Origin: a phage
Assembly (NCBI GenBank): GCA_020619395.1
Contig: GCA_020619395.1_4860.1
Length of the DNA: 64,000 bases
Strand: one strand, 5' to 3'
A model generated the notes under the pieces. It had not been told where the DNA came from. It saw nothing but the letters and a program-made list of their open reading frames with translations, and made no database searches. A program made the position numbers and the translations under genes. Each line of letters begins with the position of its first letter. Position 1 is the first letter of the stretch. Below are positions 1,516-15,636 of the stretch, one piece after another.

Positions 1516-2793
1516 TTAAGCTTTAGACTTTTCGTACGCGCCAATACCAGCGCCGATGTAGCCGTTCAGGCCGCTAATAACAGTGTTACCAACGTGAGCC
1601 ACAGCACGGTTCAGAGTCTGGTAGTTACGCACAGCCTGGTCAGCTGCAGTACGTGCATTACGCAGCGCTTCCCACTCACCTTCGTCGTTGGATTTTTTCA
1701 GAGCGGCAGCAGCTTTGGCAGCAGCCTCTTCCAGTTTCTCAACGTCAGCGTCGTAGCTGCGGAAGTCTTGCAGGACTTTCTCGAAACCTTTACCGATAAC
1801 GTCCAGGGCAGACGCAGCAGATGCCAGTGCAGAAATAGCCGGAGTAGCGATTTCTTTCGTTTCAGAAACGTCACCCGTCGACAGGAAGGCCACTGCGGTG
1901 AATTCCTGGCCGCCTGCCAGAGTTTTGCTGCCGGTCTGTACATAGGCGTTGCCTGGCAGTGCCAGAACTTTCTGACCGCCTTCGCCGTCTTCGAATTGCG
2001 GCAGTGCGCGCAGTTTCTTCGCAGCGGTACCAAACAGGGCAACGTCAACAGCGCCTTTAGCAGCGGTTGCGGTACCGTCTGAAGTTTTGGTGATCGCTAC
2101 AGCAGAGTCAGCCGCCTGAGAGGACAGCTTGTTGATGGCATCTTTCGCTTTACCGCCGGTCAGCTCTTTCGCGATAGCGATAGAGTTGGCCACATCGAAT
2201 TCACCTTCGATAGACAGTTTGCTAATAAAGCCACCAGAAATGTTTTCTTTCTTCTGTTTGCCGAGCTTACGCAGCATCTCCTGGTAAGCTTTCGCACGTT
2301 TCTGCGCGGACTTACCAACGTTGATGTACTTCAGTTTCAGCTCTTTCGCTTTCGCGATAACTGCTTTACACAGTTCAACGAAGCGTTCGAACAGATCTTT
2401 CAGGGTTTCTTTCCAGCCTTCCTGAGCTGCTTTGGTCATGCCACGGCCACGGCGATAAGATTCGCGCGCCAGTTTGGTACGATCGATAGCCCAACGTTTA
2501 CGGATAGATTCCTGCGCCACTTCGGTGTGAGCGATGGCTTCTTCAGGCATCTCTTCACCGTTTTCGATTTTTTCGTCAGCAGCGTCGATAGCAGCTTCGG
2601 TACGCTCGGTATCAGCAGCCAGAGTTTCCTGGTCGCCATCGAGCTGTTCCAGCTGACCGTCGATAGACGCAACTTCTGCCAGCTGGACGTCGATGTTCTC
2701 TTCTGCCGGTTCAACGTTGCTCAGACCGTCGATTACGTCGCCGGTAGCTTCAACGGACTCGCGGGCGAGTTTACTTTTTACAAAGTTTGCCAT
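1516..2793 (-). CDS. tandem paralog B of 179..1438; candidate virion internal protein
   Basis: 425-aa ORF with the same conserved N-terminal 15 residues, central blocks and C-terminal GAYEKSK motif as paralog A. Confidence 0.6.
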   Translation of the reverse strand: MANFVKSKLARESVEATGDVIDGLSNVEPAEENIDVQLAEVASIDGQLEQLDGDQETLAADTERTEAAIDAADEKIENGEEMPEEAIAHTEVAQESIRKRWAIDRTKLARESYRRGRGMTKAAQEGWKETLKDLFERFVELCKAVIAKAKELKLKYINVGKSAQKRAKAYQEMLRKLGKQKKENISGGFISKLSIEGEFDVANSIAIAKELTGGKAKDAINKLSSQAADSAVAITKTSDGTATAAKGAVDVALFGTAAKKLRALPQFEDGEGGQKVLALPGNAYVQTGSKTLAGGQEFTAVAFLSTGDVSETKEIATPAISALASAASALDVIGKGFEKVLQDFRSYDADVEKLEEAAAKAAAALKKSNDEGEWEALRNARTAADQAVRNYQTLNRAVAHVGNTVISGLNGYIGAGIGAYEKSKA

Positions 2794-2849
2794 TTGTTTC
2801 GGTTCCTTTGGTTATAACCCAATTACACGCCCCTAGATAAGGGGCCCCC

Positions 2850-3407
2850 TTAGGGACGTGCGATTTTTAAAAACACTGCTAACGACGAGATCATATCGGA
2901 TAACCCGTTCGGACGTGTCAACCAACGTGCCAGCAGTTCGTGGTCTGCATAAGATAATAGACGCCGGTCAGGCGTGTACGTCTGATGCGCAGTTCCCATA
3001 CGGCGAACTTGCCCACTACGACCGTAAGCCGCAGCAAGAAGTCGTGAGCCCAGGGAACCGGTTCGCTCTACTTGCTTAGTAGAGTGGATATCGTTCATGT
3101 ACGATACCAGAAGAACGGACCACTGTCCTGTTGACACTGTACGGCGTTTACCGTCAAGTATGAACGATGCAGATTCGTTATAAAACGTATTAAACGTAAA
3201 ACCGACCTGCGGATATTCGTCATATAATACTTGTTGGACAGAGTCAGCGCCCATCATGCGGAAATACGGCAGCACAACGGCTGCAGCTTCCAGGGTTTCA
3301 TGTATCAGTTCGTCGTCATGAACCAGCACGGGGTTTTGGGTCAGTTTCGCCATGTAGTTTTTAATCAACTTCTCGGCGAGGTTAAAATTCTGGTCATTGT
3401 CAAACAT
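2850..3407 (-). CDS. hypothetical protein
   Basis: 185-aa ORF in the minus-strand gene block; no motif recognised. Confidence 0.55.
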   Translation of the reverse strand: MFDNDQNFNLAEKLIKNYMAKLTQNPVLVHDDELIHETLEAAAVVLPYFRMMGADSVQQVLYDEYPQVGFTFNTFYNESASFILDGKRRTVSTGQWSVLLVSYMNDIHSTKQVERTGSLGSRLLAAAYGRSGQVRRMGTAHQTYTPDRRLLSYADHELLARWLTRPNGLSDMISSLAVFLKIARP

Positions 3408-3430
3408 GAGACTCTCCTGATAATACGGCC

Positions 3431-4363
3431 TTAAACCAGACCGTATTTTTTCTCCAGACGTTCACGTTTGTACTTGAGTTCCATCAAGCGCTTTTCGTGT
3501 GCTTCGATGAGTTTCTCAATGTGCACGTCCCCTTCACCGGCAGCCTGTTGTTTCTTGTACAACAGAATACGCAGCTCAGTCGCTTTCGCGGCTTCCACGC
3601 ACTCGTCATAACGATCCATTTGCCATTCTGCAATATTCAGACGCACGCGGTAGACAATTGACAGCGGGAACGGAACGGAGGACATACCCAGTGGATCAGT
3701 GGTGTTCGAACCGAACTGCTGAACCAATTGGCTATATGTCTCTTCGTCAAACACCGCTTCAGGTATCTCAGCGTAGTCTGCTTTCAGTTTGGTAATGGGG
3801 GTTGCCAGGACGCGCACCGCAATACAGAAAGACGTCTTACGGGTTTGCAGATACTGAAGGTCTTTCGGACCGATTCCCTTCACTGCAATGTTCGAGTCTT
3901 GTACAGCGGCAATCTCTTCGGCCGTGATGTAGTTAATCAGGGTGCTAGCGTAACCGACGAAGAATTCGATCATATCCAGCAACTGCAACACGGTTTGTTT
4001 GTTGAACGTTAGAGATGAAGTCACCAACGTCTTCCCGATGTCGCGGTCGATACACTGCTCCAGGAAAGGTCGCAGCGCCTGTACGTTCTGCATAGACGCG
4101 ATGACGTACTCCAGCATACTTGCGTTACGTAACCCTTTAACTTCCAAACCGGAGCTATGCAGGTACTTAACGATTTCAGTAGAAAGGTCTGCAACAGGCT
4201 TCGCTTTAAATGGCTTACCCTGGACACTTCCCACCAGTTCCTGGAGGTTCTGGAACTGTGGCTCTAACGCAGCAATCGAGTCGCAGTTAGATGACAGTTG
4301 GTTTTTTAAGTTCGTGGCTTCGAAGCTCGGCAGCAACATCGCCAACATATTCGGAATCGGCAT
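3431..4363 (-). CDS. hypothetical protein
   Basis: ORF-track 3431..4408 trimmed to the internal Met (ATG at 4363) that has an upstream AAGGGGA Shine-Dalgarno-like tract and removes the overlap with 4374..5492. Confidence 0.5.
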   Translation of the reverse strand: MPIPNMLAMLLPSFEATNLKNQLSSNCDSIAALEPQFQNLQELVGSVQGKPFKAKPVADLSTEIVKYLHSSGLEVKGLRNASMLEYVIASMQNVQALRPFLEQCIDRDIGKTLVTSSLTFNKQTVLQLLDMIEFFVGYASTLINYITAEEIAAVQDSNIAVKGIGPKDLQYLQTRKTSFCIAVRVLATPITKLKADYAEIPEAVFDEETYSQLVQQFGSNTTDPLGMSSVPFPLSIVYRVRLNIAEWQMDRYDECVEAAKATELRILLYKKQQAAGEGDVHIEKLIEAHEKRLMELKYKRERLEKKYGLV

Positions 4364-9737: not shown

Positions 9738-9782
9738 AAAGCACTACCCTCTCCCGAAGGAGAGGGTAGCCTTTTATTTTAT
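9727..9782. terminator. bidirectional rho-independent terminator
   Basis: Hairpin 9744-9769 (ctaccctctcc / cgaa / ggagagggtag) with A-run 9727-9740 before and T-run 9771-9780 after; sits between convergent genes. Confidence 0.65.
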
Positions 9783-11512
9783 TCGCCGTCAAGCATGTTT
9801 TTGCGATTATTACCTTTCACCAACGGGTTACGTTTGGCCAGGTTCAGTATCGTCTGCAGTGTAGCGGCAGCACCGCAACAACGACGCACCAACGACAGGT
9901 TACGACGCAAGCCGACGAAGAGGTCTTCATCACCGTCTGGGGAGAATAACACCATCGAGAGTTCACGACCGTCGGTGCGCAGACCAGAAGGTTGATTAAG
10001 CTCGTTCATAATGACTTCGCTAATCAGGTTAACGTATTCAGCGTTATCCTTGGTTGCTTTCTGGAACTGCTCCAACACTTTAATCGTGTTATTAACCGCC
10101 TTATCCAGTGCACTGTAACGGTTCAGGTTAGTCGCGGCGGTGTCGTTGGTAAAACCTTGTTTACCTAGCGTTACCACCACGGCCAGCAGCTCACGTTCGT
10201 CACCAACCGATAACGTGCCCGCTTGGCGCATTTGCTCTAAGCACTCGCGTCCCAAGAACGCCGATGCTTGTGCATTAACCAACACTTTACCAGGCACGAA
10301 GTCCACACCATCGTCATGACCCACTAAACCACGAACTTTGTTTTCTGGGATAACGACCAAAGGTGCAGTAGCGTATTCGAATCCTTTGCGGGAAACGTCG
10401 CTGATGATGAAGTTCATCGTGGTGTTCAGCTGCGCTAACGCCTGACCGAAAATAAGCGCGGTGTCGTGTGCTGCTTTGTTAACTTGCTTACCGTTGTGCG
10501 TGGTGGTTGAACCTTGCTGATTCTTAAAACCTTCGGCGACGCTTGGGTCAATCATCGCTTTAAAGGCACTCTGGAGCGAGCCAAAGTAACCGATAAGTTC
10601 GCTGGCAACATTCGACATCTGTTGGAAGTTCAACAGGTTCGGAATACGCACACCGGCTTCACGCGCAGACTTCGGCAATGCCTGCCAGGCTTTCTTACCC
10701 ACCTCAATCGGATAGATACCGTAAGTTACGTTGTGTTGTAACAGGGTATCTAACAGGTCGTGAATAACCTGCTGGCTCGATTGGCGTTTCTTAGTGTAAC
10801 CTTTGAACAATTCAGTGAACGGCGAACGACCCAGCGCGCTGCTCAAGTCATTCAGATACTCTTCCGCGTTCATGTTCGTAAACACTTCGTCGGCCATCGC
10901 GATAGCCAAGTTCAGGTTTTCCAGGTCACGACCTTTCAGACCCTTAGAGGCTTCGATGTATGCATCTTTCACTGCGCTGATTTTCAGCTGACCGATGATA
11001 GTGTTTTCGGTCTGGGAGAAACTCTCTGCTTTTTCGCCGACTTTCTCAGCGTAACCTTCGCCGTCGAATTCGCCATTACCAGCAAACCCGTTACCGTTGC
11101 TGATAATCCAACCGATGATTTTGATAATCGCGGTCATGATTAACACAACCAATCCCACTTTACCTGCATTTGCCCAGGATTCGAGCGCAACAATAGTCTC
11201 TTTCTGGTGCGTGCGGGTATAGTTAGAGGTCAGGATTTTGCGGACAGCTTCGGGAATTGTGCCTGGGCGAGAAGATTCAACAGCGACAGCGACATCTTTC
11301 GATAGGCCAGCGCGTCGCACCTCATCAAGAATCGCGTCGATTTGCAGAATCAGTCGAGAGCCGTAGATTAAGTCGGCTTCGTTGCGTTGCATGTACAGAT
11401 TGAGCTGGTTGACAGAATCAATACGCTCGGCCATACGTGAACGCAGGACTTCACCGATCTCCCCCAAACGCCATTTGGGGTGGGTGGCGTTACCTGTCAT
11501 TTCCATGCTCAT
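9779..11512 (-). CDS. hypothetical protein with one predicted transmembrane segment
   Basis: 577-aa ORF; hydrophobic stretch KVGLVVLIMTAIIKIIGWII; no enzymatic motif seen. Confidence 0.6.
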   Translation of the reverse strand: MSMEMTGNATHPKWRLGEIGEVLRSRMAERIDSVNQLNLYMQRNEADLIYGSRLILQIDAILDEVRRAGLSKDVAVAVESSRPGTIPEAVRKILTSNYTRTHQKETIVALESWANAGKVGLVVLIMTAIIKIIGWIISNGNGFAGNGEFDGEGYAEKVGEKAESFSQTENTIIGQLKISAVKDAYIEASKGLKGRDLENLNLAIAMADEVFTNMNAEEYLNDLSSALGRSPFTELFKGYTKKRQSSQQVIHDLLDTLLQHNVTYGIYPIEVGKKAWQALPKSAREAGVRIPNLLNFQQMSNVASELIGYFGSLQSAFKAMIDPSVAEGFKNQQGSTTTHNGKQVNKAAHDTALIFGQALAQLNTTMNFIISDVSRKGFEYATAPLVVIPENKVRGLVGHDDGVDFVPGKVLVNAQASAFLGRECLEQMRQAGTLSVGDERELLAVVVTLGKQGFTNDTAATNLNRYSALDKAVNNTIKVLEQFQKATKDNAEYVNLISEVIMNELNQPSGLRTDGRELSMVLFSPDGDEDLFVGLRRNLSLVRRCCGAAATLQTILNLAKRNPLVKGNNRKNMLDGE

Positions 11513-11952
11513 GAAATCTGCCCTTTCAGTTCTGCCATGTAGAAACCAACCACTTCCATAAAGCGGCTAATCCACAGACCGACGGTTTCCCAGATATCTT
11601 CCCCGAGTGCCTGGTTGAAAATCTCACGAACTGAGAAACTTTCCAGAGCTTTAGCGCCGCCATACACGTTGCAGTAACGATTGCAGTACAGACCCACGGT
11701 CATGTCCTCAATCACGCCTAAATCAACACAGTACAGCTCGTTAACGTCAGAGACGATGTTACGCATTACCGGACGTAAAAACGTCCCAGCGGCCTCTGCA
11801 GCGCCATATTGGCCATTGTCAGCCAATACCGCGTTATACGCCAGTGAGAAAGCAACCAGACCGGTCAAAGCACGCTGGGCGTGTACACCTTTCCCTTCGT
11901 TGGTACGTTTGAAATCCAGTACCAGGTTATTTAAAGAAACTTTATGCGTCAT
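11509..11952 (-). CDS. hypothetical protein
   Basis: 147-aa ORF with a 4-nt stop/start overlap with the downstream gene. Confidence 0.5.
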   Translation of the reverse strand: MTHKVSLNNLVLDFKRTNEGKGVHAQRALTGLVAFSLAYNAVLADNGQYGAAEAAGTFLRPVMRNIVSDVNELYCVDLGVIEDMTVGLYCNRYCNVYGGAKALESFSVREIFNQALGEDIWETVGLWISRFMEVVGFYMAELKGQIS

Positions 11953-11967
11953 GTTAAGTACCCTTAC

Positions 11968-12405
11968 TTAAGAAACGGTAAGACCGGCTTCTTTGATGTG
12001 GTTGTGAATCGTGTCGAAGTAGACTTCTTCGTAGTCTGTCACGCCACGTGTGTAATATTCGGGGGAACCTTCGTAGGCTTGCTGCCAGGGTTCGGAGCAT
12101 TTACTAGGATCAATCCGATACAGATGCAAGCTGTCCTGCATCGAAATATTGTTCCAGTAACCGTTCGATTTCAACAATAGCTCGTTGCCGCGCTGTTGTA
12201 CGCGTACGGAAGCGATAGGCTGCCCCGGTGCCGATGAACGATTAGTTCGACAGGCATACTCGATGCCCGCTTTAACCGCCTCTGCGCGCGTCGCATACGC
12301 TTCGAGGGTCGGTGTGTCAGTTCCAATACGGTCACCGTATAAGTCACGGTCAATCTGACTGGCTGACAGCACCTTCCAGTGGTACGGCAGCATCACCCAC
12401 AACAC
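11968..12405 (-). CDS. hypothetical protein
   Basis: 145-aa ORF in the same block. Confidence 0.5.
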   Translation of the reverse strand: MLWVMLPYHWKVLSASQIDRDLYGDRIGTDTPTLEAYATRAEAVKAGIEYACRTNRSSAPGQPIASVRVQQRGNELLLKSNGYWNNISMQDSLHLYRIDPSKCSEPWQQAYEGSPEYYTRGVTDYEEVYFDTIHNHIKEAGLTVS

Positions 12406-12431: not shown

Positions 12432-13781
12432 CTACGACTTTACCGTGGCGAGCTTCGCAGAAGCCACACGCAGGTCATTAGAAAGATAACGCTCCATCGT
12501 ACGCTGATAATCCACACCAGCGCGCTCACGGCGACCGCCAGGGGTCAGCGTTTTCATGATGAAGCTAAAGACGTTGTCTTTGTCTTTCACGGTTTTCAGT
12601 AATTCGTCGATAGACGCAATGCCCTGCAGAATACGTTTACGATGTTCGTTCGCTTCTTTCGTGGTGCTACCTTTTAAGGTGTTCAGCTCTTCCACTAAGT
12701 TACGACGCATCGTCTCAAAACGTTCCTGCGGCGGATCGTAGATGGTGTTGCGTGGGTCGTTCACAATCAGACCGAACGCCACCGAGATAGTCGTGAAGAA
12801 CAGGCCAACTGGATTAGTCGAAGCCACAATCAGCAGCGAAACGTTAAGCATTTCCAGCATCAGATGCACACCGTAGTTCATGTACGACGCGTTCCGGCAG
12901 AGATAGAATTGGGACGTTTCGATTTTGTACAGGGCTGACGCCAGGTACGGGGCTGCACCAAAACGAGCTGCGAAGTCATCTGCAGCACGTTCCCAGGTAC
13001 GGTTAGCGAACCCTTCCGAACCGGTAACAAACGGACGCTCAAGCAGAATGTCCGTCACCAGATGCATGTAGATGTTCTCTTTAGACATCTCTTTGCAGAT
13101 AGTTTCCGGCTGATTCACTTTGGTGTTCAGCATACGTTCAACGTCTTTTACGACTTTCAAACGCACTGTCGGGTCTTCGGTTTGCATCATGCGGTTCGCT
13201 GCAGCATCCGCAATCAGGTTCGTTACCACCGTACGCATCAAGGTACGGAAATAGTAATAGACGTGGCCGACTTCATGTAGAATAATCGCCGCGACTTCTA
13301 AATCCGTTAAGTCGATACTGGTCAGTAGTTTCGGGGTCAGCCAAAGTGGGGACGGCACCTTGCTGAGTTCGCCTGAAAGCTTCGCATTTTTATCGTCGAA
13401 CTCGCCGTTCAGTTCGTTCTCTTTTAAGAACTTACTGTAGACATCCAGGTCGGTGTTACCCTGCACCATTTTGCGTTGCAGGTCGGCGATAATTGGGTTG
13501 TTCGCGTCGAGCTTCGGTGGCTCCACACCCGCAAACACAACGTCCGCCACACCTAAGTCGGACCCGTTACGAGGCAGGACTGTAATACCGTTGTTGTCAA
13601 AGACCCAGGCAGCAATACCAGAACTCTGATAACCCGCTGGCGAGAAATCGCCCGCATCACGGAACTTACGTACCACTTCCGCCAAAGAGGCGAGTTTCTT
13701 TTTATCTTGGAATCCGATGGACTCCGAGGCCACGGCTTTCGCGTCGGCCAACGAGGTTATGTGCTTTTGCCAGTGTCCCAT
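12432..13781 (-). CDS. M48-type zinc metallopeptidase-like membrane protein
   Basis: 449-aa ORF with HEVGH (HExxH) and downstream ERAADDFAARFG (E-x-x-AD-x-FA, the third zinc ligand pattern of M48/HtpX/Ste24-type peptidases, recalled), plus hydrophobic helices such as VSLLIVASTNPVGLFFTTISVAFGLIV. Confidence 0.5.
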   Translation of the reverse strand: MGHWQKHITSLADAKAVASESIGFQDKKKLASLAEVVRKFRDAGDFSPAGYQSSGIAAWVFDNNGITVLPRNGSDLGVADVVFAGVEPPKLDANNPIIADLQRKMVQGNTDLDVYSKFLKENELNGEFDDKNAKLSGELSKVPSPLWLTPKLLTSIDLTDLEVAAIILHEVGHVYYYFRTLMRTVVTNLIADAAANRMMQTEDPTVRLKVVKDVERMLNTKVNQPETICKEMSKENIYMHLVTDILLERPFVTGSEGFANRTWERAADDFAARFGAAPYLASALYKIETSQFYLCRNASYMNYGVHLMLEMLNVSLLIVASTNPVGLFFTTISVAFGLIVNDPRNTIYDPPQERFETMRRNLVEELNTLKGSTTKEANEHRKRILQGIASIDELLKTVKDKDNVFSFIMKTLTPGGRRERAGVDYQRTMERYLSNDLRVASAKLATVKS

Positions 13782-13851: not shown

Positions 13852-15636
13852 ATGGAAATCAATACCTATTACGCACCCGAGGATGTCATCGCTAAAGAGT
13901 GCAAGCACGTCGCTTATGCGACGGACGAAGAAAAAGAAAATGACTTTGTCCTCATCAAAGAGGTCATCCATACTAAGGATGGCAGGCTTATCCCGCGCTT
14001 GGTAATGCGTGAGAATTTAAAGCGTCCGGTGTACGTTACCCGTGAAGAATATCGTAACCACCAGGAGAAAAAAGAGTTCGAAGAAAAAGGAAAATGTCAA
14101 GAACTCTGGACCACCGATGCACAAATGGCGAAGACGTTGCAGATGGGTTTAGGTGCACGTTTCCCTGACCCGAAAAAGAACCTGCGTCGTGTCTGTACTA
14201 GCCCGTACGTTTATTGGGCCGACTTACCGATTACCAGCTGGATTAAACAGAAATACTTAAAGCGCTGGCCGAACAATATCAGTCCTAACCGTCTTTGCGT
14301 ATACGACGTGGAGACTAACGAAATGGACGGCACGAAGGAACCGTGGATCGTGTCATTTATCTTAGACGACGAAATCCATTTCTTTGGTGCTAAGAACTAC
14401 ATGGACCGCATCGGTAAAAACGCGGAAGAAGTCATTCTCAAAAAAGCGCAGGAACTCTTAAGCAAAATCGAATTCGATGAGAAAGACAAAAAGACTGGCG
14501 AAAAGGTGACAAAGACCAAAGACATTATCAGTGGTTATAAAATCTTCACCTATACCTGCGCTACGGCAGGGCAGTGCATCGTCAGGATGTTCGAAGAGAT
14601 TCATCCGCGTCTTCCTGATTTGCTGGTCGCATGGAACCACCAGTTCGATATTTCACGCATGTTGGAAACCTTGCAGAAAGAAGGTATCGATCCACTGGGC
14701 GTCTTTAACCATCCGGATGTGCCGGAGAAATACCGTCGTCTGTGGTTTAAAGAAGACCAGGCGAACAAAAAGACGGAATCCAAGTCACTCACCAAAGCAC
14801 CGTCACAACAGTGGCACGTACTCTACTGTACTGCGTCTTTCTACTGTGTGGATGCCATGGTGTTATTCCGTTCGTTGCGTGTCCACGAAGGGCAACGTCC
14901 TTCGTACAAGTTATCTGCCATACTGTACACCGAACTCGGTTTACACAAACTCGACATTCCTGGACTGCCGTATGAAGATAACCTGCAATGGCACATAAAA
15001 GCACAACGGGACTACCCTGCCGAATATGCCGTATACAACATGATGGATAACTTGTTAATCGTGTTGTTGGATAAGAAGACGAACGACTTGTCTTCGGCAA
15101 TATCCATTCTGGCAGGTTTCTCGATGTACGATATCTTCCCGTCGCTACCAAAACGTATCTGCGTGGCCTTTACCTATTATCTGTATGACAAAGGATACGT
15201 CATCGGTTCCGTAGGGTCTGCAATGCGTAACGATTACGATGAAGAAGTTATCGGTACGGACGGTTGGATTGTTACCCTGACAGCATGTATGAATGCTGAG
15301 AACGGTCTGAACAACATTCTGGAGGAGATTGACGAATATTACTCTGCGTTCCGTGGACAAACTGCGGATGCGGACTTAACCCAGGCCTACCCTTCGGCCA
15401 CAAACATGATGAACCAGTCTCGTGAGACCACACTCATCGAACTACTGTCCATCAATGGGGTTAGTGAAGAGATTCGACGTCGCACGGGCGTCAACTTAAC
15501 TGCTGGGCGAGTTAATGCCATGGAAATAGCGACAGACTTCTTCTGCTTACCGGACAAAGACACTGTCCTGTCCACGTTCTTACGTAAGCAAGGGGAAGTA
15601 GTGACAGAGCCTATGGAGTACATCTGCGGGTTCTAA
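13852..15636 (+). CDS. DEDDy-type 3'-5' exonuclease domain protein; candidate proofreading part of a split family-B DNA polymerase
   Basis: 594-aa ORF with Exo I-like CVYDVETNE (D-x-E), Exo II-like WNHQFDISR (N-x3-F-D) and Exo III-like YNMMDNL (Y-x3-D) in the expected order. Confidence 0.5.
   Translation: MEINTYYAPEDVIAKECKHVAYATDEEKENDFVLIKEVIHTKDGRLIPRLVMRENLKRPVYVTREEYRNHQEKKEFEEKGKCQELWTTDAQMAKTLQMGLGARFPDPKKNLRRVCTSPYVYWADLPITSWIKQKYLKRWPNNISPNRLCVYDVETNEMDGTKEPWIVSFILDDEIHFFGAKNYMDRIGKNAEEVILKKAQELLSKIEFDEKDKKTGEKVTKTKDIISGYKIFTYTCATAGQCIVRMFEEIHPRLPDLLVAWNHQFDISRMLETLQKEGIDPLGVFNHPDVPEKYRRLWFKEDQANKKTESKSLTKAPSQQWHVLYCTASFYCVDAMVLFRSLRVHEGQRPSYKLSAILYTELGLHKLDIPGLPYEDNLQWHIKAQRDYPAEYAVYNMMDNLLIVLLDKKTNDLSSAISILAGFSMYDIFPSLPKRICVAFTYYLYDKGYVIGSVGSAMRNDYDEEVIGTDGWIVTLTACMNAENGLNNILEEIDEYYSAFRGQTADADLTQAYPSATNMMNQSRETTLIELLSINGVSEEIRRRTGVNLTAGRVNAMEIATDFFCLPDKDTVLSTFLRKQGEVVTEPMEYICGF

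Follow-up and report, generated by a model that had tools for sequence, protein, structure and literature searches.

A head-packaged M48-like zinc metallopeptidase candidate of SPN3US-like jumbo phages

Why would a giant phage carry, next to its DNA polymerase gene, a protein with the HExxH motif of zinc metallopeptidases, and where would such a protein act? The question is raised by a gene in a stretch of 64,000 nucleotides (the window) from an SPN3US-like jumbo phage, a giant phage of Salmonella. The reading frame delineated in the first-pass annotation is confirmed as a single minus-strand frame of 449 residues, and the translations of its motifs were rechecked.

12432..13781, minus strand: gp45 coding sequence, a single ORF of 449 residues plus stop; candidate head-packaged M48-like zinc metallopeptidase

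This gene is SPN3US gp45, which corresponds to phiKZ gp84 and to the Chimalliviridae core gene cg22 (RAY gp067 / phiKZ gp084 in the supplementary table of the Chimalliviridae core genome). Its orthologs include SPN3US_0045, SEGD1_047 (AMR59696.1), phiKZ gp84 and Goslar gp067. The SPN3US and SPFM genes are 98-100% identical to gp45 and are labelled virion structural protein, and the match to phrog_2767 has an E value of 6e-167. Membership in the core genome is borne out by the presence of an ortholog throughout the nucleus-forming jumbo phages, with synteny kept. By tblastn, gp45 matches 193 phage records from Erwinia, Pseudomonas, Salmonella, Serratia, Vibrio, Ralstonia and other hosts, and an exhaustive profile search shows the family to be both very large and old, with 2,450 clusters at 50% identity. 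The reach of a word-indexed homolog search was limited to members at least ~21% identical, and iteration gained just two sequences. Conservation counts given below refer to 147 family members with a median identity to gp45 of 26%.

That gp45 is a zincin-like peptidase by annotation and a head protein is already known; the SEGD1 ortholog (AMR59696.1) has been described as a conserved uncharacterized zincin-like metallopeptidase (Iyer et al., 2021). Literature searches on gp45 and its homologs (phiKZ gp84/PHIKZ084, Chimalliviridae metalloprotease, Goslar gp067) yielded no data on enzymatic activity, zinc binding, ejection or localization.

Catalytic motifs and kinship with M48 peptidases

Three blocks of gp45 can be compared with those of M48 enzymes.

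13263..13277, minus strand: HEVGH, residues 169-173; two predicted histidine ligands of zinc plus the catalytic glutamate, in a helix spanning residues 160-199
12957..12992, minus strand: ERAADDFAARFG, residues 264-275; E264 is the probable third zinc ligand, and D268 completes an M48-type E-x-x-A-D
12720..12740, minus strand: YDPPQER, residues 348-354; collinear with the C-terminal HPxxxxR block of M48, with Tyr for His

An HExxH motif alone is weak evidence, because the long six-frame ORFs of the window, ~22,500 residues in all, contain two occurrences. In gp45, a chance motif is ruled out by invariance over the family: HEVGH is kept in 147 of 147 members, aligns with the HExxH of HtpX, LoiP, YcaL, BepA and ZMPSTE24, and falls within a long predicted helix (residues 160-199, by DSSP on the AlphaFold model). 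The first-pass annotation had placed a second motif about 70 residues downstream. Both motifs are present, but the distance from H169 to E264 is 95 residues (91 from H173), with a family mode of 95 and a range of 91-101. The HExxH-to-Glu spacing of E. coli M48 enzymes, ~58-83 residues, is shorter. In alignments, E264-R-A-A-D268 stands opposite the EFQAD of ZMPSTE24 (E415), the EYQAD of Ste24p and the EAEAD of LoiP. Seven residues (H169, E170, G172, H173, E264, D268 and R354) are 100% conserved across the 147 members. In the third block, D349 is kept in 98% of the family and Y348 in 95%. This YDxPxxR block lies opposite the HP....R of LoiP only in a permissive hhalign alignment, and the change from His to Tyr holds in all but 7 of the 147 members. 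The putative signature of three M48-specific blocks, the third with Tyr for His, is an addition of the present analysis.

Taken as remote homology only, these similarities suggest that gp45 is a divergent gluzincin-type zinc metallopeptidase, closest to M48. The earlier label of M48-type metallopeptidase survives as far as this remote homology and the HExxH and ExxAD blocks reach, but the Pfam M48 (PF01435) score of gp45, 18.0 bits (E 0.0026), is under the gathering threshold of 20.3. Pfam M48 matches are found in 23 of 30 family members, with a best E of 4.5e-4 among the 30, and in NCBIfam gp45 gives just HtpX and LoiP fragments, far under cutoffs. When the gp45-family profile is compared with the PDB, the top matches are ZMPSTE24 and Ste24p, with E264 aligned on the known ligand E415. 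Against E. coli M48 proteins, hhalign assigns probabilities of 94.2% and 88.1%, compared with 0.2% and 0.1% for reversed controls. BFVD ties the gp45 fold to the phage AR9 'Zincin protease' and to 'Peptidase M48 domain' entries; a Foldseek search of the gp45 model against the PDB gave nothing significant. Matches to exportin-1 in a single-sequence search of PDB sequences were set aside as chance. The first-pass annotation would have abandoned the zinc metallopeptidase reading had there been neither an HMM match nor an HExxH helix; the position of HEVGH in the helix of residues 160-199 leaves that reading in place.

The alternative of M56 did not fare as well. Pfam M56 matches neither gp45 at E <= 10 nor any of 30 family members at E <= 0.1. 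An M56/BlaR-type sensor protease is rejected on this count and for want of a penicillin-binding or other sensor domain.

Most records label gp45 'virion structural protein', and the literature holds no demonstrated activity, so gp45 could be envisioned as a structural or scaffold protein that keeps a zincin-like fold but is catalytically inert. However, the H, E, H, E and D residues are retained in every member at a median identity of 26%, as expected of an active enzyme on which purifying selection acts; in pseudo-enzymes, catalytic residues are usually lost. We reject a pseudo-enzyme, all catalytic residues being retained, and regard an inert protein as very improbable.

Gene neighborhood, propeptide and head location

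The following genes adjoin gp45:

11509..11952, minus strand: gp46, 147 residues; small head protein by mass spectrometry (MS), matching phrog_8529 of no known function; same cluster and direction as gp45
9779..11512, minus strand: gp47, 577 residues; essential head ejection protein of the gp45 cluster, matching phrog_8131
13852..15636, plus strand: gp44, DNA polymerase gene; conserved neighbor, divergent from gp45 across a 70-bp intergenic gap

The first-pass annotation judged the gene unusual for a replication/transcription region. Its surroundings argue otherwise: gp45, itself a family core gene, heads a conserved head-gene cluster (gp45-46-47, equivalent to phiKZ gp84-86), and the nearby gp42 and gp46-49 also code for virion proteins. 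The cg22 orthologs keep their synteny with gp85/86 and with the divergent polymerase gene, and adjacency to the polymerase gene is also seen in Goslar and in a metagenomic relative 23% identical. The link to gp47 is an addition of the present analysis. A helix of transmembrane (TM) grade lies at about residues 117-139 of gp47, directly past its maturation cleavage, and particles of the amber mutant 47(am1) have a normal appearance but are non-infectious. In some metagenomic long forms, a gp45-like domain is fused to an N-terminal region that resembles gp47, the gp47-like match being weak (28 bits). Pfam domains were found neither in the N-terminal extensions of eight long-form homologs nor in gp46, gp47 or the extra ORF.

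Published proteomics show gp45 as a 50-kDa precursor that enters the prohead, loses 20 residues and is retained in moderate amounts in mature heads; MS of purified heads counted 899 PSM for gp45 versus 480 for the 12-copy portal. The idea of a signal-transducing protease, raised in the first-pass annotation, finds nothing that points toward it; published MS places gp45 inside the capsid after prohead-protease processing. The residues removed are as follows:

13722..13781, minus strand: N-terminal propeptide, residues 1-20, MGHWQKHITSLADAKAVASE; gp245, the prohead serine protease, cuts it off after ASE-20 (published MS)

This propeptide resembles a T4 capsid-targeting sequence, and residues 1-23 have low pLDDT. 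Across the family, the cleavage site has Glu at P1 in 146 of 147 members and Ser, Ala or Gly at P3 in 133, with a median propeptide length of 12 residues; the family-wide conservation of this prohead-protease site is new to the present analysis. With a short propeptide cut by the prohead protease and a place in mature heads, gp45 has the hallmarks of an internal head protein. It is in this like T4 IPI-III and Alt, which are also carried in the head after the prohead protease has cut a short N-terminal propeptide. The proteins phiKZ gp84, PhiPA3, Goslar gp067, RAY gp067 and the AR9 'zincin protease' belong over their full length to the gp45 family and are located in the head where tested; they are only 14-25% identical to gp45. 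The prohead proteases gp245 (SPN3US), gp175 (phiKZ) and T4 gp21 are, as predicted for gp45, proteases located in the head. However, these three are of the herpesvirus-assemblin/T4 gp21 serine protease type and cut after Glu, and gp45 is a substrate rather than a relative.

Location in the head raises the prospect that gp45 is a second head-maturation protease, which would work beside gp245 to trim scaffold, inner-body and other head proteins during assembly. Exactly this role has been proposed for the ortholog AMR59696.1 (Iyer et al., 2021). gp45 is inside the head by an entry route shared with other prohead-core proteins, head-protein proteolysis is extensive in related phages, and gp245, by cutting off the propeptide, could activate gp45 as a zymogen. 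Yet the A/S-x-E specificity of gp245 accounts for each of the 14 cleavage sites mapped in SPN3US heads, and ~80% of head proteins are uncleaved, so there is no orphan cleavage that would call for a second head protease. The conserved TM-grade hairpin described below is also without obvious use in a lipid-free capsid. We consider a maturation role rather unlikely.

A conserved hydrophobic hairpin

The first-pass annotation had noted hydrophobic helices. These are present, but amount to just one hairpin:

12762..12875, minus strand: hydrophobic helical hairpin, residues 303-340, YGVHLMLEMLNVSLLIVA-STN-PVGLFFTTISVAFGLIV; family-specific insertion between M48 blocks 2 and 3

In the model, DSSP assigns a helix-turn-helix to residues 303-320 and 324-340. 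The most hydrophobic window falls in this segment in 145 of 147 members, with a median Kyte-Doolittle value of 2.2 (the 19-residue maximum in gp45 is 1.64) and uncharged runs of 27 residues at the median. The family median of the Hessa dG is 0.46 kcal/mol, and 38% of members are below 0. In gp45 the minimum is +3.95, at residue 314, and no 19-residue window is below 2.5; for comparison, HtpX TM helices reach -2.35 and periplasmic M48 proteins range from +3.7 to +6.6. Judged by these predictions, the hairpin is of transmembrane grade in most members and borderline in gp45 itself, where it may be no more than part of the buried core. The position of this insertion and its conservation are further additions of the present analysis.

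Among membrane M48 proteases, HtpX has TM1-2 at the N-terminus and TM3-4 between HExxH and the Glu ligand, and Ste24 has seven TM segments. The proposed HtpX/Ste24-like membrane architecture does not hold for gp45: the N-terminus has no signal peptide and no TM helix, and the sole hydrophobic element is the hairpin after the Glu-ligand block. Nor is a multi-pass topology found in the family at large, which still has one hairpin only. Ste24p and ZMPSTE24 (MEROPS M48A; PDB 4il3, 4aw6, 6bh8) are barrels of seven TM segments in the ER or nuclear membrane, with an enclosed chamber. Unlike them, gp45 is capsid-packaged and has a single hairpin instead of a TM barrel, besides an N-terminal region and a C-terminal helical domain of its own; identity is ~15%, and the H-to-E spacing is 95 versus 80. 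HtpX (M48B) is an E. coli inner-membrane quality-control protease; the hhalign probability is 94% (84.8% when HtpX alone is compared), over a strand and the HExxH block. HtpX and, by prediction, gp45 are zinc proteases that each have a hydrophobic hairpin inserted in the catalytic domain. However, HtpX has two N-terminal TM helices and a hairpin between HExxH and the Glu ligand, whereas gp45 has neither, its hairpin coming after the Glu block. The periplasmic M48 proteins BepA, LoiP and YcaL and PDB 3c37, which are soluble or lipoproteins, have signal or lipoprotein peptides and the His of HPxxxxR. gp45 differs from these in having no signal peptide, Tyr in place of His, and an extra ~40-residue hairpin and ~100 C-terminal residues.

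M48-like motifs together with a hydrophobic segment, in a gene that adjoins DNA polymerase and RNA polymerase genes, would fit a protease resident in the membrane of the infected cell during replication, either HtpX/Ste24-like or M56-like and signal-transducing. However, gp45 is an abundant, processed head component whose neighbors are themselves virion proteins, and it has neither the N-terminal TM helices or signal peptide of the former nor the M56 match or sensor domain of the latter. We think such a resident protease highly unlikely.

Alternatively, gp45 could be ejected as a soluble effector with its hairpin buried, acting in the cytoplasm or early-infection (EPI) vesicle on host defense or housekeeping proteins, or activating co-ejected phage proteins. 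Its location in the head and its capsid-targeting-like propeptide are as consistent with this explanation as with the one we prefer below. The hairpin of gp45 itself is only borderline hydrophobic, and its pLDDT is ~78-84 within one compact AlphaFold prediction (pTM 0.74). However, the TM-grade character of the segment across the family, in dG and in length of uncharged runs, would be unusual for a soluble fold, and the nearest relatives (Ste24, HtpX, BepA and LoiP) all act at membranes or the envelope. An effector of this kind is possible, but we give it only a minor share of our confidence.

A tentative role at genome entry

Our preferred explanation, to which we give somewhat short of even confidence, is that gp45 is an internal head M48-like protease that is ejected with the DNA and anchored by its hairpin at a host membrane. 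The propeptide would serve as a capsid-targeting sequence. Once packaged, gp45 would ride in the capsid and exit as the DNA is ejected, accompanied by the virion RNA polymerase and by ejection proteins that include its cluster neighbor gp47. The hairpin may then anchor the ejected protein in the host inner membrane or in the membrane of the EPI vesicle, where its substrates could be envelope or membrane proteins of the host, or phage proteins ejected alongside it, and their cleavage would aid genome delivery and early infection. The idea of gp45 as cargo draws on the conserved S/A/G-x-E site and the short propeptides, as in T4 capsid-targeting sequences. The idea of membrane anchoring draws on the hydrophobic segment conserved in 145 of 147 members, the TM-grade helix of gp47, the fusions of gp47-like and gp45-like regions, and the Chimalliviridae lipid vesicle. 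Membrane-active ejected proteins of other phages (T7 gp14-16, P22) carry hydrophobic segments, and the concept of ejected cargo can be applied to gp45. To our knowledge, there is no M48-like metallopeptidase among the T4 internal head proteins, T7 gp14-16 or the P22 ejection proteins.

A bolder version, which we offer as a possibility of low probability, is that gp45 (cg22) is an ejected, membrane-inserting M48-like protease within the Chimalliviridae genome-delivery machinery and acts with gp47. Its hairpin would insert into the inner membrane once gp45 has been ejected. Together with the TM-bearing gp47, gp45 might then open the entry path by remodeling or cleaving proteins of the membrane or envelope. 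Alternatively, the two proteins could help form or maintain the lipid EPI vesicle round the injected genome.

In phiKZ, orf84 has no filtered transposon insertions, and gp45/cg22 may therefore be essential in that phage. The missing insertions may also reflect a polar effect; the adjoining orf85-86 likewise have no insertions, yet are deletable. No amber mutant of gene 45 is described in the SPN3US literature.

The genome of Chimalliviridae enters a lipid EPI vesicle first and then a protein nucleus. Nucleus-forming jumbo phages resist DNA-targeting defenses because the genome is never exposed, and they are candidates for phage therapy. Reviews list as open questions how the EPI vesicle forms and which injected proteins act at its membrane. 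Universally conserved capsid cargo with a recognizable, predicted enzymatic fold is rare, and gp45/cg22 is one such protein; it also has a membrane-grade hydrophobic element. This combination, along with its possible essentiality, singles it out as a specific, testable candidate for a function in early infection.

Identity of gp45 and its probable relationship to M48 peptidases

The window shares 98-99.4% identity with SPN3US-like Salmonella jumbo phages (genus Seoulvirus). Its candidate peptidase gene corresponds to SPN3US_0045, whose product, gp45, is annotated as 'putative virion structural protein 1'.

gp45 CDS, 12432..13781, minus strand, clean reading frame of 449 aa

The first-pass annotation described this protein as a candidate M48-type (HtpX/Ste24-like) membrane metallopeptidase. 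Re-verified coordinates confirm the frame and place HEVGH at residues 169-173; ERAADDFAARFG starts at residue 264, giving an H169-E264 spacing of 95 residues instead of the roughly 70 first estimated. A bare HExxH is not rare, as it occurs a second time among the long ORFs of the window, and the motif in gp45 needed conservation as support. All of the 147 sequences compared, at a median identity to gp45 of 26%, keep H169, E170, G172, H173, E264, D268 and R354. The second HExxH, HEHFH in a 933-aa minus-strand ORF (frame 1), is probably a chance occurrence.

At full length, gp45 falls into PHROG 2767 (E 6e-167), a family without an assigned function. Homologs were found by tblastn in 193 phage records, with hosts that include Erwinia, Pseudomonas, Salmonella, Serratia, Vibrio, Ralstonia, Klebsiella, Escherichia, Burkholderia and Xanthomonas. 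phiKZ has it as gp84, a 'structural head protein', and Goslar as gp067; RAY gp067/phiKZ gp084 is cg22 of the Chimalliviridae core genes (Prichard et al., supplementary table). An exhaustive profile search with the family returned 2,450 cluster representatives (50% identity) at E ≤ 1e-3 and 986 at E ≤ 1e-30, and nearly all of the 150 matches listed are 410-450 aa long. Several SPFM-phage entries (P0028-P0034, 275-445 aa) score strongly against gp45, with BLASTP query coverage of only 4-5% at 86-100% identity, which suggests that the gp45 sequences deposited in those records are frameshifted, masked or otherwise corrupted.

Pfam Peptidase_M48 matches gp45 at E 0.0026 and 18.0 bits, under its gathering score of 20.3 bits, and by curated thresholds gp45 falls outside formal M48 membership. 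The remote likeness to M48 is recurrent: a match of this sub-threshold kind appears for 23 of 30 family members, and among the 30 no second peptidase family comes up repeatedly. Searched against all PDB sequences, a 30-sequence family profile ranks ZMPSTE24 and Ste24p on top (E 0.022-0.2), with both blocks aligned and E264 on E415, a known zinc ligand. In hhalign, the 147-member alignment matches E. coli M48 proteins with probabilities of 94.2% (HtpX-led alignment) and 88.1% (LoiP/YcaL/BepA), against 0.2% and 0.1% for reversed-sequence controls. In a permissive alignment, HExxH, E-x-x-A-D and YDxPxxR line up with M48 as blocks 1 to 3, block 3 facing HPxxxxR of M48, whose His is replaced by Tyr in the gp45 family and retained in 7 of 147 members. 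The AlphaFold2 model (pLDDT 75, pTM 0.74) has a small beta-sheet followed by a long helix bearing HEVGH. Full-length BFVD matches to this fold are jumbo-phage virion proteins (TM 0.6-0.75), and weaker ones include an AR9 'zincin protease' and 'Peptidase M48 domain' entries. We read the family, from sequence and predicted structure, as a putative divergent gluzincin clade with M48 as its nearest known family, and it is quite likely that gp45 acts like an M48 enzyme.

What the first-pass annotation observed is confirmed, and its interpretation is supported in part. Its core idea is correct; it is not new, because the gp45 ortholog AMR59696.1 (SEGD1_047) already carries a zincin-like annotation in the literature (Iyer et al., 2021) and a few family records are labelled 'M48 family lipoprotein protease', 'beta-barrel assembly-enhancing protease' or 'zincin protease'.

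Head location and gene neighbourhood

Mass spectrometry in the Thomas and Weintraub laboratories identified gp45 as a head protein, with a predicted mass of 50.3 kDa and a mature mass of 48.2 kDa; the prohead serine protease gp245 cuts it at ASE-20 (PMC5694885, PMC10052503). Their table lists it as 'Head, unknown function'. Purified heads gave 899 PSM for gp45, compared with 480 for portal and 829 for gp47, and so it is a genuine head component of moderate abundance, at a rough estimate tens of copies per head. Only gp45 and one other gp245 substrate have a short propeptide that can be compared with the T4 capsid-targeting sequence. Across the family, the S/A/G-x-E cleavage site is kept (P1 Glu in 146 of 147 members, P3 S/A/G in 133 of 147; median propeptide length 12 aa), a conservation that is new as far as we found. 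The main alternative to the role in entry proposed below is that gp45 could be a second maturation protease in the head. This explanation is weakened by the cleavages mapped in SPN3US heads, all of which match gp245 specificity, and by the roughly 80% of head proteins left uncut.

The gene had also been considered unusual for a replication/transcription region. The DNA polymerase gene, gp44, does lie divergent from gp45 across a 70-bp gap, an adjacency also found in Goslar and in a metagenomic relative (23% identity). A minus-strand cluster starts with gp45 and continues with a small extra ORF, gp46 and gp47.

Extra ORF, 11968-12405, minus strand, 145 aa, phrog_22066 (unknown function), between gp45 and gp46
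gp47, 9779-11512, minus strand, TM-grade helix at aa ~117-139

Both gp46 and gp47 are head proteins, and gp47 is an essential ejection protein, mutants without which form non-viable particles. Given these neighbours and the kept adjacency, gp45 is not out of place; it sits in a conserved module of head and ejection proteins. The gp47 helix directly follows the reported maturation cleavage at ALE-111, and mature gp47 would begin right ahead of it.

The 145-aa ORF has no Pfam match and is missing from the SPN3US reference locus. Query coverage is 90%, in two pieces, for SPN3US-type records and 100% for SPFM/SPLA phages, and by this comparison the ORF resembles an insertion into the head-gene cluster that varies among strains. 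In phiKZ, the gene divergent from gp84 is PHIKZ083 (2348-3862 of its locus, minus strand), annotated 'structural head protein'; the equivalent position holds DNA polymerase (phrog_3011) in SPN3US, Goslar and the metagenomic relative, and phiKZ gp83 could conceivably be a fragment of a polymerase that also occurs in heads.

The hydrophobic hairpin and long-form homologs

The sole strongly hydrophobic part of gp45 is a helix-turn-helix at residues 303-340, and neither a signal peptide nor a TM segment was found at the N-terminus. The proposed HtpX/Ste24-like topology therefore does not hold. Relative to LoiP, the hairpin is itself a ~40-residue insertion between blocks 2 and 3, and TM3-4 of HtpX lie at a different site. 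Hydrophobicity over 19 residues peaks between the Glu and YDxPxxR blocks in 145 of 147 members (median Kyte-Doolittle 2.2). On the Hessa scale, the family hairpin has a median dG of +0.46 kcal/mol and is below 0 in 38% of members, compared with -2.35 for true TM helices of HtpX, +3.7 to +6.6 kcal/mol for periplasmic M48s and +7.5 (median) for the remaining long ORFs of the window; gp45 itself, at +3.95, is at the weak end of the family. The hairpin is conserved and, judged by hydrophobicity, seems capable of entering a membrane. TM-like 19-residue stretches also occur in two further ORFs (≥200 aa) of the window, one of 495 aa (at aa ~434, Hessa dG 2.4) and one of 427 aa (at aa ~313, 1.9), which may encode more membrane-active phage proteins.

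There are several groups of long-form homologs, with lengths of 800-1,450 aa. Each group is conserved over its full length, with 33-43% identity within groups in the N-terminal extensions, and the long forms are thus real fusions.

Long-form homologs of gp45 (metagenomic, gp45-like domain C-terminal)
P0058, P0095, P0124: ~800-840 aa
P0088, P0137: ~1,230 aa
P0069: 1,206 aa
P0171: 1,452 aa

P0069 and P0137 have a weak gp47-like segment (phrog_8131 N-terminal region, E 1.5e-6) upstream of the gp45-like domain.

A possible role in entry

We envision that the propeptide of gp45 serves as a capsid-targeting signal and that the enzyme would be carried as capsid cargo and ejected together with the DNA. 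The hairpin could then anchor it at the inner membrane or at the membrane of the EPI vesicle, the lipid early-infection vesicle around the injected genome, where it may cut host or co-ejected proteins. In phiKZ, TnSeq gave no filtered insertion within the 1,242 bp of orf84. Essentiality is only suggested by this count, since the authors of that study warn of possible polar effects here and orf85-86, also insertion-free, can be deleted.

A protease motif in a phage protein is ordinary in itself. Reviews count the membrane steps by which chimalliviruses enter the cell among the open questions, and for these steps gp45 is a well-defined, testable candidate.
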